This document shows, piece by piece, positions 47,158 to 48,464 of a DNA stretch of 64,000 nt. The notes beneath the pieces are model-generated. The model was not told where the DNA came from, ran no database searches, and was given only the letters and a program-made list of their open reading frames with translations. Both the position numbers and the translations under genes were made by a program. Every line of letters starts with the position of its first letter. Within the stretch, counting starts at the first letter, position 1. This stretch comes from an uncultured Candidatus Saccharibacteria bacterium (GTDB taxonomy: Bacteria > Patescibacteriota > Minisyncoccia > UBA6257 > UBA11618): assembly GCA_964432405.1 (NCBI GenBank), contig CAYSNH010000001.1, positions 497 to 64,496 on the forward strand. Direction: 5' to 3'.

Positions 47158-47604
47158 TTAAAATTCCTCTAATTTAATTGAACTAATCTCAACCTGCTTC
47201 GTCAAAGGATTAACATCTAAGATAGCTTTAAGACGACGCTTAACAAATACCGCTTTAGCATCAGCCCTAACTTCATACTGACAAACTCCTAAGCCACAAG
47301 TAACCTTGCAAACAAAGACGTCAACACTAGCTCGACCAATAGCCTCAAAGCTATAATTCTCATCACTCTTGAATCCCGGACACTCCTTATCTACCTCCAA
47401 CTCATCTCGTAATAAACGAAGATGAGCATCATCTACCGCTGCTTGAGCCGCCGCACCTGTCTCAGCTGCCAAACGAATTCCATAAGTCGATTGATTAATA
47501 AGCCGAACTACCAAAATACCTGTTAAGACTAAACCTATAATAATCACCCCCATAACTAGGATAGTTGGCAAAACAGCTACGCCTTTTTTATTCATGGGCT
47601 CCAA
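47158..47604 (-). CDS. Membrane-anchored hypothetical protein (pilus-locus associated)
   Basis: N-terminal TM helix VAVLPTILVMGVIIIGLVLTGIL followed by a 4-Cys soluble domain. Confidence 0.35.
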   Translation of the reverse strand: MEPMNKKGVAVLPTILVMGVIIIGLVLTGILVVRLINQSTYGIRLAAETGAAAQAAVDDAHLRLLRDELEVDKECPGFKSDENYSFEAIGRASVDVFVCKVTCGLGVCQYEVRADAKAVFVKRRLKAILDVNPLTKQVEISSIKLEEF

Positions 47605-48464
47605 TTAATAATTATATCACGAATAATAGGTGTATCTTCTAGCCAATTGTCACTACTAAGACTAATTTTATATTTTATATATCTTTTTTCTTGCTGATCA
47701 TCTGGAATTCTAATTTGCTGACCAGATGTAGACAAATTTAGATCATTAAAATTCCACGGTCCAGTATTAACAGCAGCAGTTGCTGTCTGAACATAAACAT
47801 CCGTACCTGTCACAACATCACCTTGCCAAAGAATGTAGTTATAACGTGGATTTACCACTCCTGTATCAATCACATTAGAAGTTAAACTACCATCACTACT
47901 TTGCGATCCAGCACTAGTTTGTATTTTATATTTAGAAAAATTACAAAACTCCTGCACTCCAGCCACATCCGGATCATGATCATTTTCACAATGAAAGCTA
48001 ATCCAGCCAATAATCTCACTCCATGCCCAACCCTTAAAAAAACTATTTTCCCCATCACCTACTGGCTCAATAGAAACTCCATAATCTGATACCCCACAAG
48101 CATCAATATCCTCACAATCAAAACTAATCCAACCTATCGTGTCATTCCAAGCCCAACCACTAAGAACTCCCTGACTATTTTTCACTCCAAAATTATCATT
48201 ACTATCATCACAAATATCACCAATAGGTGTTGTCGCACAATTCAAAACAACCTCTCCTACCTGAGAGTTAAACCACCCTCTCAACTCATCACCTCTTACC
48301 TCCACCGTGTCATTATCATGAAAATTAATCCAACCTATTAAATCATTCCAAGCCCAATAAAAACCCTCATTTTTGGTATCAATATTATGATTACCTAATG
48401 AATGAGCTGAAATAACGCCAGTTAAGAAAGCTCCTATTAAAATTATTAAAATTATCTTTTTCAT
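47592..48464 (-). CDS. Secreted protein with three GW(A)W-x3-IGWISF repeats (unknown repeat family)
   Basis: Signal peptide MKKIILIILIGAFLTGVISA. Repeats FYWAWNDLIGWINFHDND, SGWAWNDTIGWISFDCED and KGWAWSEIIGWISFHCEND each end in an acidic/Cys-containing tail. Confidence 0.5.
   Translation of the reverse strand: MKKIILIILIGAFLTGVISAHSLGNHNIDTKNEGFYWAWNDLIGWINFHDNDTVEVRGDELRGWFNSQVGEVVLNCATTPIGDICDDSNDNFGVKNSQGVLSGWAWNDTIGWISFDCEDIDACGVSDYGVSIEPVGDGENSFFKGWAWSEIIGWISFHCENDHDPDVAGVQEFCNFSKYKIQTSAGSQSSDGSLTSNVIDTGVVNPRYNYILWQGDVVTGTDVYVQTATAAVNTGPWNFNDLNLSTSGQQIRIPDDQQEKRYIKYKISLSSDNWLEDTPIIRDIIINWSP

Follow-up and report, generated by a model that had tools for sequence, protein, structure and literature searches.

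The window, as the whole 64-kb stretch of DNA under study is called here, contains a type IV pilus (T4P) operon with one gene that could not be placed in any family. The question raised by this gene is whether its product is carried on the pilus, and what it does there. Patescibacteria (CPR) make up a large share of bacterial diversity and most of them seemingly live attached to other cells, with type IV pili as the leading candidates for host contact. To our knowledge, almost none of the Paceibacteria/Parcubacteria have been cultured, and we know of no host-touching pilus part in the class Paceibacteria. These bacteria are host-attached and their T4P clusters include unannotated genes (PMC9763046). 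The family described here is a concrete, widely conserved and wholly unannotated candidate for the host-contact part, with neither a Pfam nor an NCBIfam model.

The open reading frame (47592..48464) is on the minus strand, as are all features given below. According to the ORF list it starts with ATG and encodes 290 aa, with the stop codon at 47592-47594. Gene calls on metagenome contigs and in independent assemblies include a near-identical protein (99%). The frame contains WAW[NS][DE]xIGWI[NS]F repeats, just as the initial annotation described. Judged from its sequence and model, the product is a stand-alone module in which a GW-repeat array and a jelly-roll domain follow a predicted Sec-type signal. 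The putative signal peptide MKKIILIILIGAFLTGVISAHS (aa 1-23, 48396..48464) begins with MKK, continues with a hydrophobic core and ends with SAHS. In the AlphaFold2 model the N-terminus forms a helix at aa 2-18, and the pLDDT is below 50 at aa 16-23. Secretion had been proposed earlier, and the same features recur in most of 150 stand-alone relatives: K/R in the n-region (143/150), a hydrophobic core (142/150) and a small-x-small site, mostly AxA, immediately ahead of a conserved N[IV] (115/150). In the target and the relatives alike, export was predicted from these heuristic features. A prepilin (class III) signal was not found in the target, since neither N_methyl nor TIGR02532 matches it at E<=1 in Pfam and NCBIfam; both neighbouring proteins do match. 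The lollipop pilin fold with its alpha1 helix of ~50 residues is also absent from the AlphaFold2 model, which has a 17-residue helix, then disorder and then only beta structure.

The GW-repeat array (aa ~27-185, 47910..48386) has four homologous units, delimited by DSSP of the model, hhalign and conserved columns. In the model each unit consists of a strand followed by the hairpin G-W-A-W-N-D-x-I-G-W-I-S-F and a Cys-x(n)-Cys loop. Three places in the target match the strict motif W.W[NS][DE].[IV]GW[IV][NS]F, namely repeat core 1 (WAWNDLIGWINF, aa 37-48, 48321..48356), core 3 (WAWNDTIGWISF, aa 104-115, 48120..48155) and core 4 (WAWSEIIGWISF, aa 146-157, 47994..48029). The window has no further copy of this motif in any of its six reading frames, and none of 100,000 shuffled versions of the target protein contained even one. 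The three repeats counted initially are strict copies, but a degenerate fourth unit (aa 53-92) had been overlooked. It is revealed by hhalign with family sub-alignments, at E-values of 1.2e-8 against unit 3 and 1e-7 against unit 4, which makes the array one of four units and not three. The core of this unit, GWFNSQVGEVVLNC (aa 63-76, 48237..48278), has the family consensus GYASSSxGxIxLDC. Strong hhalign E-values also link units 1 and 3 (2.9e-13), 1 and 4 (1.7e-13) and 3 and 4 (1.4e-21), indicating that the units are homologous. The W, G, N, D and C columns of the array are almost invariant across the family; conserved Trp, Asn and Asp are abundant, and the Cys pairs are conserved.

The AlphaFold2 model of the target (pLDDT 88.5) shows a C-terminal jelly-roll beta-sandwich behind the repeat domain. 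This second domain (aa ~186-290, 47595..47909) has six to seven strands modelled at a pLDDT above 90 and ends with IINWSP, which is almost invariant. The earlier statement that the protein could not be assigned to a family agrees with the searches made here. Pfam gave nothing relevant at E<=1 (a single spurious LPAM_1 match), NCBIfam gave no match, PHROGs gave nothing relevant (best E 0.02), and the family profile matched no PDB sequence at E<=10. No description of the family was found in the literature searched, and a cluster look-up of multi-repeat non-pilin proteins gave no annotation. With Foldseek, the best domain-sized matches are to the jelly-roll. These are weak matches of 100-140 columns to PirA, CBM61, CBM22/27, MAM and factor V/VIII C2 domains, and to the sugar-binding domains of Fbs1 and PNGase. 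The C-terminal ~105 aa are predicted to form a beta-sandwich of the type seen in CBM6/22/27/61, Fbs1, PNGase, MAM, discoidin C2 and PirA. The jelly-roll, as modelled, weakly resembles CBM-type sugar-binding sandwiches, but with E-values of 0.002-0.2, a TM of 0.3-0.55 on the target, no sequence similarity and no transferable ligand-binding residues. Since these matches are weak and Foldseek gave no convincing structural neighbour for the repeat domain, a reading of the protein as a lectin is soft.

The matches ranked first by Foldseek are of another kind. They are the podovirus nozzle proteins P22 gp10, SU10 and Sf6 in the PDB and their relatives in BFVD, with E-values of 1e-4 to 5e-6 and a probability of ~1. 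A likeness to the gp10-type fold could suggest a ring- or nozzle-like conduit for passage of the pilus across the wall or S-layer. However, the TM of 0.13-0.30 and the rmsd of 16-37 Å mean that there is no global superposition on these proteins. With the gp10 nozzle/hub group the TM is below 0.3 and the rmsd above 15 Å, and PHROGs shows no sequence relation; the likeness is probably a local beta-sheet similarity. In addition, relatives are fused to pilin N-termini (see below), which puts the module in the filament and not in a static ring. A conduit is the least credible of the roles considered and is hardly to be expected.

The initial annotation placed the gene between PilM/N and pseudopilin genes, and the neighbouring matches bear this out. 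Upstream are two N_methyl pseudopilins, a PilV/GspI-like minor pilin (48461..49144; N_methyl 9.3e-7, TIGR02523 1.2e-8) and a GspH/FimU-like minor pilin (49080..49562; N_methyl 4.9e-7, TIGR01708 9.1e-11). They are preceded by the platform protein PilC (49565-50776; T2SSF 2e-52), the assembly ATPase PilB (50782-52491; T2SSE 2.2e-120) and, at the head of the operon, a major-pilin-like gene (53084..53656; N_methyl 2.4e-6), whose product exceeds the other pilins in conservation across loci (0.81 bits per residue). Downstream of the target are a conserved 145-aa protein (47158..47595) and a PilM-PilN fusion of the assembly platform (45636..47156; PilM_2 5.9e-7, PilN 6.2e-4). The 145-aa protein, which would be 148 aa long from a TTG at 47604, has one N-terminal TM segment, is called as a gene on near-identical contigs and is syntenic in at least 38 loci. 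It has no match in Pfam or NCBIfam and is possibly a cap pilin of the PilX/GspK/ComGG type that lacks Glu5. Its ATG overlaps the stop codon of the target (ATGA), and the stop codon of the PilV-like gene overlaps the start of the target (ATGA at 48461-48464). The target is therefore translationally coupled on both sides.

The arrangement is not limited to the window. The order pilin(s), PilB, PilC, GspH-like, PilV-like, target, 145-aa protein and PilM/N is fixed in 70 of 79 informative loci, each from a different GTDB species. The target has 626 homologues at E<1e-3, and the family comprises 2,781 cluster representatives and occurs in at least 532 GTDB species. All named sources are Patescibacteria, in line with the lineage-specific distribution that had been suggested. 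About 9 of 80 homologues are outside any T4P operon.

The constancy of this position raises the possibility that the protein is a core assembly or priming subunit. It would then be the non-pilin part of the minor-pilin initiation complex, stabilising the PilV-like pilin or counteracting retraction, and ligand binding would be secondary or absent. The fixed place in the operon core between the minor pilins and PilMN (70/79 loci) and the coupling on both sides are in keeping with such a role. Pfam and NCBIfam revealed no GspJ/PilW-like pilin among the operon products, so the complex may need another subunit. Conservation of the target (0.58 bits per residue) is at the level of PilMN (0.55) and above that of the flanking minor pilins (0.36-0.44), although the comparison is biased because the loci were picked by similarity to the target. 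Conservation above that of the minor pilins is more readily expected of a core or structural component, or where the ligand is conserved, than of an adhesin that is host-specific and evolves fast. Against a core role, the GW array alone is grafted onto three types of pilin, PilV-like, GspH-like (P0213, P0223) and major-pilin-like, and occurs in PKD/Ig-containing surface proteins without pilin parts. Some sublineages have duplicated the array or carry it as an insertion within the jelly-roll. Such grafting, duplication and insertion are typical of an effector module and not of a fixed part of a machine. A core subunit thus seems unlikely, although it deserves to be kept in mind. Of the two roles offered in the initial annotation, adhesin and assembly factor, the evidence fits either and does not separate them. 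By analogy with PilY1, which acts in both pilus biogenesis and adhesion, the two can coexist.

The association with the pilus is well supported by synteny and by covalent fusion of the module to a PilV-like pilin in relatives. Fused relatives of 460-540 aa have a prepilin N-terminus (GQSLIE), a PilV-like domain and the GW/jelly-roll module at the C-terminus. The searches recovered over 50 fused homologues of full length, and the prepilin motif is present in 23 of the 27 relatives in this size class. In BLASTP the PilV-like protein of the window aligns over its full length with the N-terminal half of two fused proteins (P0128, E 3e-17; P0168, E 4e-23). The AlphaFold2 model of another (P0086, pLDDT 92) has an alpha1 helix at aa 8-62, a beta-sheet head and a low-confidence linker at 209-212, followed by the module. 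A separate PilV-like gene is absent from the loci L018, L025, L054 and L064, each of which has a fused gene. The gene pair in the window is the split counterpart of the fused modular pilin. In a neighbour-joining tree of 265 modules the fused and split forms are interleaved, which requires at least 15 changes between them. Decay of a fused pilin by frameshift, with the split gene as the resulting pseudogene, was considered and rejected, because ~200 relatives (~290 aa) each begin at a start of their own with a signal peptide that is conserved among them, and because independent assemblies also yield a gene call for the 99%-identical protein.

The PilV-like minor pilin of the window, the probable carrier of the module, has the tail RQTNWSGGP...FFESSGLDF...GLLKV, a motif shared by 39 of 59 orthologues. 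The tail (QTDWSGG...GSIxI) was considered as a source of missing jelly-roll strands in trans. This was dropped as unsupported, because the tail also occurs in pilins that carry the GW array only (L037 9371-10420, L071 6738-7910). It is retained as a candidate docking element.

The fused forms also bear on another explanation, in which the product is a surface or cell-wall binding protein that is merely co-regulated with the pilus and stays on the envelope, the S-layer or the cell's own wall. Such a protein would be expected to have an ordinary Sec-type signal, as predicted heuristically here, and no prepilin signal. Homologues unlinked to T4P genes adjoin Lamin-tail-domain membrane proteins, and GW arrays are present in non-pilin proteins. 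The homologues outside T4P operons and the PKD/Ig proteins indicate that the module is not exclusive to pili and can function without one. The Trp-rich hairpins also have some loose resemblance to Listeria GW modules and to the repeats that bind choline and the cell wall (CW_binding_1), both of which are short tandem Gly-Trp/aromatic beta-hairpin units in secreted proteins, but this likeness is a lead only. The unit of the target is longer (35-55 aa), with an additional strand as well as a Cys-Cys loop, and is present in only four copies of fixed order. The Pfam models CW_binding_1, GW, SH3, LysM and SLH do not match the target at E<=1. The initial annotation would have been abandoned for a known carbohydrate- or cell-wall-binding repeat that lacked synteny with pilus genes elsewhere; no such repeat was matched and the synteny holds. 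Repeated independent fusion to pilin C-termini is hard to account for off the filament. A wall protein that only shares its regulation with the pilus is accordingly judged improbable.

The reading preferred here, with slightly better than even confidence, is that the window protein is a Sec-exported, split version of a modular minor pilin which serves as a ligand-binding head displayed on the pilus. The gene would encode the detached effector half. The product would be exported by the Sec pathway, lose an ordinary signal peptide and fold into the four-unit Trp-rich hairpin array and the jelly-roll, with loops stapled by disulfides. The mature protein may then dock non-covalently on the PilV-like pilin encoded directly upstream, with which it is translationally coupled. 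As the minor-pilin complex primes assembly, the filament would take the module outward, in a manner similar to PilY1 on PilV/W/X, and would most probably bear it at the tip. In that place the module would be the head with which the type IV pilus of Patescibacteria binds its ligand, and the best guess for this ligand is a conserved glycan or cell-envelope polymer of the host cell. Fusion and synteny make it likely that the protein associates physically with the PilV-like pilin and is displayed on the pilus. Given display, the tip location, the binding function and the glycan ligand have about even chances, by analogy and composition.

A close parallel is the class of modular pilins (Raynaud et al. 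2021; Shahin et al. 2023; PMC8179133, PMC9934059). In Streptococcus sanguinis the modular minor pilins are PilB, with a vWA module, and PilC, with a ConA-like lectin module, and such pilins present grafted adhesive modules (PMC8179133, PMC9934059). Grafted GW arrays match this pattern and were counted in favour of a binding head displayed on the pilus. The fused relatives are built in the same way, with a class III signal, a pilin head, a short linker and a C-terminal effector module, and some carry a LamG/ConA-like domain. In larger pilins LamG, DUF2341 and TIG modules accompany the GW array. The host is likewise of monoderm type without a secretin, and tip-displayed binding is inferred in both systems. 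A pilin and a non-pilin module in one polypeptide with a short linker, as in the definition of the class, are found in at least 59 relatives, whereas the window protein has no pilin module and is a separate protein with predicted Sec export. The family also differs in that fused and split states have interconverted repeatedly, and the GW array and jelly-roll lack an InterPro/Pfam signature and are unrelated in sequence to vWA or LamG.

The split form is comparable in its arrangement to PilY1/PilC, the non-pilin tip proteins of type IVa pili in Pseudomonas, Neisseria and Myxococcus, from which, together with modular pilins, the tip location is assumed. Like them, the target is a beta-rich non-pilin, predicted here to be Sec-exported, and its gene is among those of minor pilins. 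For the target as for PilY1/PilC, a ride on the minor-pilin complex and a double task in adhesion and priming are proposed. The order fimU-pilVWX-pilY1 is paralleled by FimU-like, PilV-like, X and PilX-like, where X is the target (see also the discussion in PMC8179133). Gene position and the heuristic Sec-type signal are the PilY1-like traits found in the target. The protein is much shorter (290 aa against ~1000 aa) and has another fold, a hairpin-repeat array with a jelly-roll, and its gene is between the PilV-like and PilX-like genes and not after PilX. The PilY1/PilC beta-propeller (PF05567 / IPR008707) gave no Pfam match to the target at E<=1, and no PilY1 structure is among its best 50 Foldseek PDB matches.

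Candidate adhesins in Saccharibacteria are minor pilins with accessory C-terminal domains and without a PilD signal (PMC11623550). They include PilX1 and PilX2 of TM7x, candidate tip adhesins with no predicted PilD signal for which glycans are implicated; PilX2 is needed for efficient host binding (PMC11623550). Compared by description, these are pilin-like lollipops with added domains in the class Saccharimonadia, while the window protein has no pilin part and belongs to a Paceibacteria-type genome.

A DNA receptor of a competence pilus was also considered, on the model of ComZ, ComP or VC0858-type minor pilins. Such a receptor would catch extracellular DNA, to be taken up by nucleotide-auxotrophic CPR cells. 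ComZ is likewise a large beta-rich module on a minor pilin (also cited in PMC8179133). CPR show joint enrichment of T4P and competence genes, and an alternative DNA-binding mechanism has been proposed for them (PMC6744442). The family is, however, uniformly acidic (pI 4.05-6.47, median 4.5), and the mature window protein has a pI of 4.1 and a net charge of -26, which argues against DNA binding. ComZ and ComP folds are also absent among the Foldseek matches. A DNA receptor is thus very improbable.

A wider proposal is offered only tentatively and is more doubtful than the preferred reading itself. The GW-hairpin array may be a structurally new ligand-binding domain found throughout the Patescibacteria, and the main host-recognition head of the Paceibacteria T4P. 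The effector would then switch repeatedly between a covalent graft and a non-covalent, Sec-exported subunit, possibly docking via the QTDWSGG...GSIxI tail. If true, one protein family would bridge the modular pilins and the PilY1-type non-pilins through a mode of mounting that was previously undescribed. As a defined protein, the target lends itself to expression, to binding screens with glycans and host envelopes, and to labelling with antibodies in enrichment cultures. Two domain families merit registration, the C-terminal jelly-roll and the GW-hairpin array. The natural pilin fusions indicate where the module acts, and a direct comparison of the fused and split states offers a natural system for studying the loading of pili with a non-pilin subunit.

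The target is encoded on the minus strand at 47592-48464 of the window, within a type IV pilus (T4P) operon; the window ORF list gives it an ATG start and 290 aa. The canonical repeat cores 1, 3 and 4 lie at aa 37-48 (WAWNDLIGWINF), 104-115 (WAWNDTIGWISF) and 146-157 (WAWSEIIGWISF), and a degenerate unit 2 is located between units 1 and 3 at aa 53-92 (GWFNSQVGEVVLNC; family consensus GYASSSxGxIxLDC). The strict repeat motif does not occur outside the target in a six-frame translation of the window, or in any of 100,000 shuffles of the target protein. The family alignment was split into repeat units, which were compared pairwise with hhalign. 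Homology of units 1, 3 and 4 is clear (E 1.7e-13 to 1.4e-21), and unit 2 matches units 3 and 4 with E-values of 1.2e-8 and 1e-7. The array has four units, three canonical and one degenerate; the motif search and hhalign thus bear out the three repeats of the initial annotation and extend them by one. In the family alignment, near-invariance is seen at the Trp, Gly, Asn and Asp of the repeats and at four cysteines, C76, C85, C159 and C174.

The target has no match in Pfam (E<=1), NCBIfam or PHROGs, its family profile has none among PDB sequences, and literature searches found no papers on the family. The AlphaFold2 model, built from a 105-sequence alignment, is confident (mean pLDDT 88.5, pTM 0.76). 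It begins with a helix (aa 2-18) and a disordered stretch. An all-beta repeat domain spans aa ~27-185, with a strand, a GWAW...GWISF hairpin and then a Cys-x(n)-Cys loop in every unit, and a C-terminal beta-sandwich, the jelly-roll (aa ~186-290), closes with a nearly invariant IINWSP. The modeled N-terminus is consistent with a predicted cleavable Sec signal. By a heuristic rather than SignalP, a basic n-region is found in 143 and a hydrophobic core in 142 of 150 stand-alone relatives, and 115 of the 150 have a small-x-small site, mostly AxA, just N-terminal to a conserved N[IV]. Foldseek searches of the PDB and BFVD consistently ranked podovirus tail nozzle proteins of the P22 gp10 type at the top, with E-values of 1e-4 to 5e-6 and a probability of ~1, but with TM-scores <0.3. 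The repeat domain could not be placed in a known fold class.

In the window, a 16S rRNA gene, a response regulator gene (53717-54139) and the T4P operon follow one another on the minus strand. The operon has, in order, genes for a major-pilin-like protein (53084-53656), an unassigned 190-aa multi-TM protein (52504-53076), PilB (50782-52491), PilC (49565-50776), two minor pilins, one GspH/FimU-like (49080-49562) and one PilV/GspI-like (48461-49144), the target, a single-TM protein of 145 aa (47158-47595; 148 aa if started at an upstream TTG) and a fusion of PilM and PilN (45636-47156). ATGA overlaps join the target to both neighbours, its start to the stop of the PilV-like gene and its stop to the ATG of the 145-aa protein; therefore, the three genes are probably translationally coupled. 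The 145-aa protein could not be assigned to a family, and at least 38 loci retain it downstream of the target. Its one TM segment is N-terminal, starts KKG|VAVLP and lacks Glu5; the protein may be a cap pilin of the PilX/GspK/ComGG type.

A word-indexed search returned 626 relatives, mostly of 280-310 aa and all annotated as hypothetical, whose named sources are all Patescibacteria (Paceibacterota, Lipton-, Harrison- and Wolfebacteria). An exhaustive search of cluster representatives gave 2,781 matches at E<=1e-3, 565 of which remain at E<=1e-10, and when one genome per GTDB species was scanned, at least 532 stretches encoded a homologue. Window proteins were also searched against the ORFs of 80 fetched loci, one of which was too short to judge. 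A nearly unchanged order recurs: pilin(s), (TM protein), PilB, PilC, GspH-like, PilV-like, target, 145-aa protein, PilMN, (Pth), LepB and HisS. The homologue is linked to T4P genes in 70 of the 79 informative loci, with a T4P gene directly next to it on at least one side in 69 and locus L051 as one more. Two loci (L015 and L037) have two target-like genes within one operon. The other nine loci are unlinked, and they include a subgroup of 314-350 aa and 33-35% identity (L040 at 8772-10933, L043, L059, L061, L066, L075, L080 and L035). Genes of this subgroup are oriented divergently to the gene of a membrane protein that carries two Lamin-tail domains (PF00932, E 1e-26 to 2e-31), and they sit upstream of CysS-DnaB-RecR.

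Many relatives of 460-540 aa match the target over their last ~260 residues only, and in 23 of 27 proteins of this class a prepilin motif (…GQSLIE…) opens the N-terminal half. In BLASTP the PilV-like pilin of the window is homologous over its full length to the N-terminal halves of two such fusions, P0128 (E 3e-17) and P0168 (E 4e-23), including its C-terminal tail RxxNxxFxQT(D/N)WSGGP…FxxSxG(I/L)D(F/Y)…GxL. A search with another fusion, P0086, found more than 50 full-length homologues, some of which are annotated at source as prepilin-type or PulJ/PulG. In the AlphaFold2 model of P0086 (pLDDT 92.2), aa 8-62 form a typical pilin alpha1 helix, which leads into a beta-sheet head; a short linker of low confidence (aa 209-212) connects this head to the module. 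No separate PilV-like gene is present in the fused-gene loci L018, L025, L054 and L064. Fused (59) and split (206) forms are intermixed in an approximate NJ tree of the 265 modules, so that at least 15 changes of state are needed.

The last ~45 aa of the PilV-like pilin (window 48461-48600, minus strand; L002-L079) have the consensus LTRxxNxxFxQTDWSGGxGQxGP…FxTSTxIDY…TTGSIxI and surpass the pilin body in conservation. This motif occurs in 39 of 59 stand-alone orthologues, which end ~40 residues past WSGG. Since this tail precedes the GW module in fused proteins, it is a candidate docking element. The pilin fusions, the replacement of the gene pair by a fused gene, the repeated switching between forms, the fixed operon position and the translational coupling together make a strong case that the target most likely works with the PilV-like minor pilin. 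It would probably sit on that pilin and thus be displayed on the T4P.

The GW array also occurs without the jelly-roll on PilV-like pilins (L037, 9371-10420; L071, 6738-7910), GspH-like pilins (P0213, P0223) and a major-pilin-like protein (P0204). A second complete array lies inside a jelly-roll loop in a 445-460-aa subgroup (P0011-P0026) and in P0174, where the order is pilin, LamG, jelly-roll N-half, GW array and jelly-roll C-half; therefore, the array is an autonomous, insertable module. In larger pilins LamG, DUF2341 and TIG domains accompany the module. Long arrays of up to ~15 units are found in large signal-peptide proteins (P0255, P0209, P0235, P0248, P0260) that also have PKD, Ig-like (Rha78A_N) or Lcl_C domains and lack a pilin part. 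These variants mark the parts of the protein as autonomous modules.

The initial annotation proposed a pilus-tip adhesin or assembly factor, a reading that is partly supported. The pilus association is strongly supported by the 70 linked loci and the pilin fusions, and the adhesin role is plausible, if unproven; pilus linkage is absent for some homologues and for many GW arrays. A tip location and a binding role are suggested by analogy, because the module is grafted, duplicated and combined with lectin-like domains, has conserved Cys pairs, an extracellular hallmark that goes with the enrichment of MdbA-like oxidoreductases in CPR genomes (PMC6744442), and includes a CBM-like jelly-roll and repeats rich in Trp, Asn and Asp. 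The best guess for the ligand is a host glycan or an envelope polymer of the host, which fits host binding in Saccharibacteria, where it is reported to be glycan-dependent and minor pilins to carry accessory domains (PMC11623550), and the host-attached life of Paceibacteria (PMC9763046). Members of the family are acidic throughout, with a median pI of 4.5 (pI 4.1 and net charge -26 for the mature window protein), so a role as DNA receptor is unlikely. Across loci, which were picked by similarity to the target and so bias the comparison, conservation of the target (37% identity, 0.58 bits per residue) exceeds that of the flanking minor pilins (0.36-0.44) and is close to that of PilMN (0.55). 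A role in core priming or a conserved ligand would fit this better than a fast-evolving host-specific adhesin.

The modular pilin principle is established for PilB and PilC of S. sanguinis (PMC8179133, PMC9934059), and modular pilins share effector modules with PilY1-type carriers (PMC8179133 / PMC9934059). The target would follow the same principle in split form. It is not a pilin, since it lacks a class III signal and an alpha1 helix, and the split form resembles PilY1, a non-pilin tip protein. The target was also tried as a PilY1/PilC family member and as a CW_binding_1, GW or LysM protein, and it fitted none of these. It is the split counterpart of a modular pilin with an undescribed effector module. 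The idea of an effector on a pilin is known; what is new is the module family, how widely it occurs in Patescibacteria, and its repeated switching between fused and split forms.

The 190-aa multi-TM protein occupies the spot where a prepilin peptidase might be expected. It is kept at this position, between major pilin and PilB, in at least 25 related loci; it has no match in Pfam or NCBIfam, and A24 peptidase models do not match it. In most related genomes the pilus operon is followed by a housekeeping block of Pth (opposite strand), signal peptidase I LepB and HisS. In the window (39172-47156), genes for HIT, S21, GatB/YqeY-like, YbeY-like, FtsA and FtsZ come after that block. The synteny of pilus operon, Pth, LepB and HisS (window, L001-L079) is unusually stable for genomes so divergent. 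Immediately upstream of the response regulator and T4P operon, and on the same strand, is a complete bacterial 16S rRNA gene (54183-55669, minus strand, 1420 bits), which could serve for phylogenetic placement of the organism.
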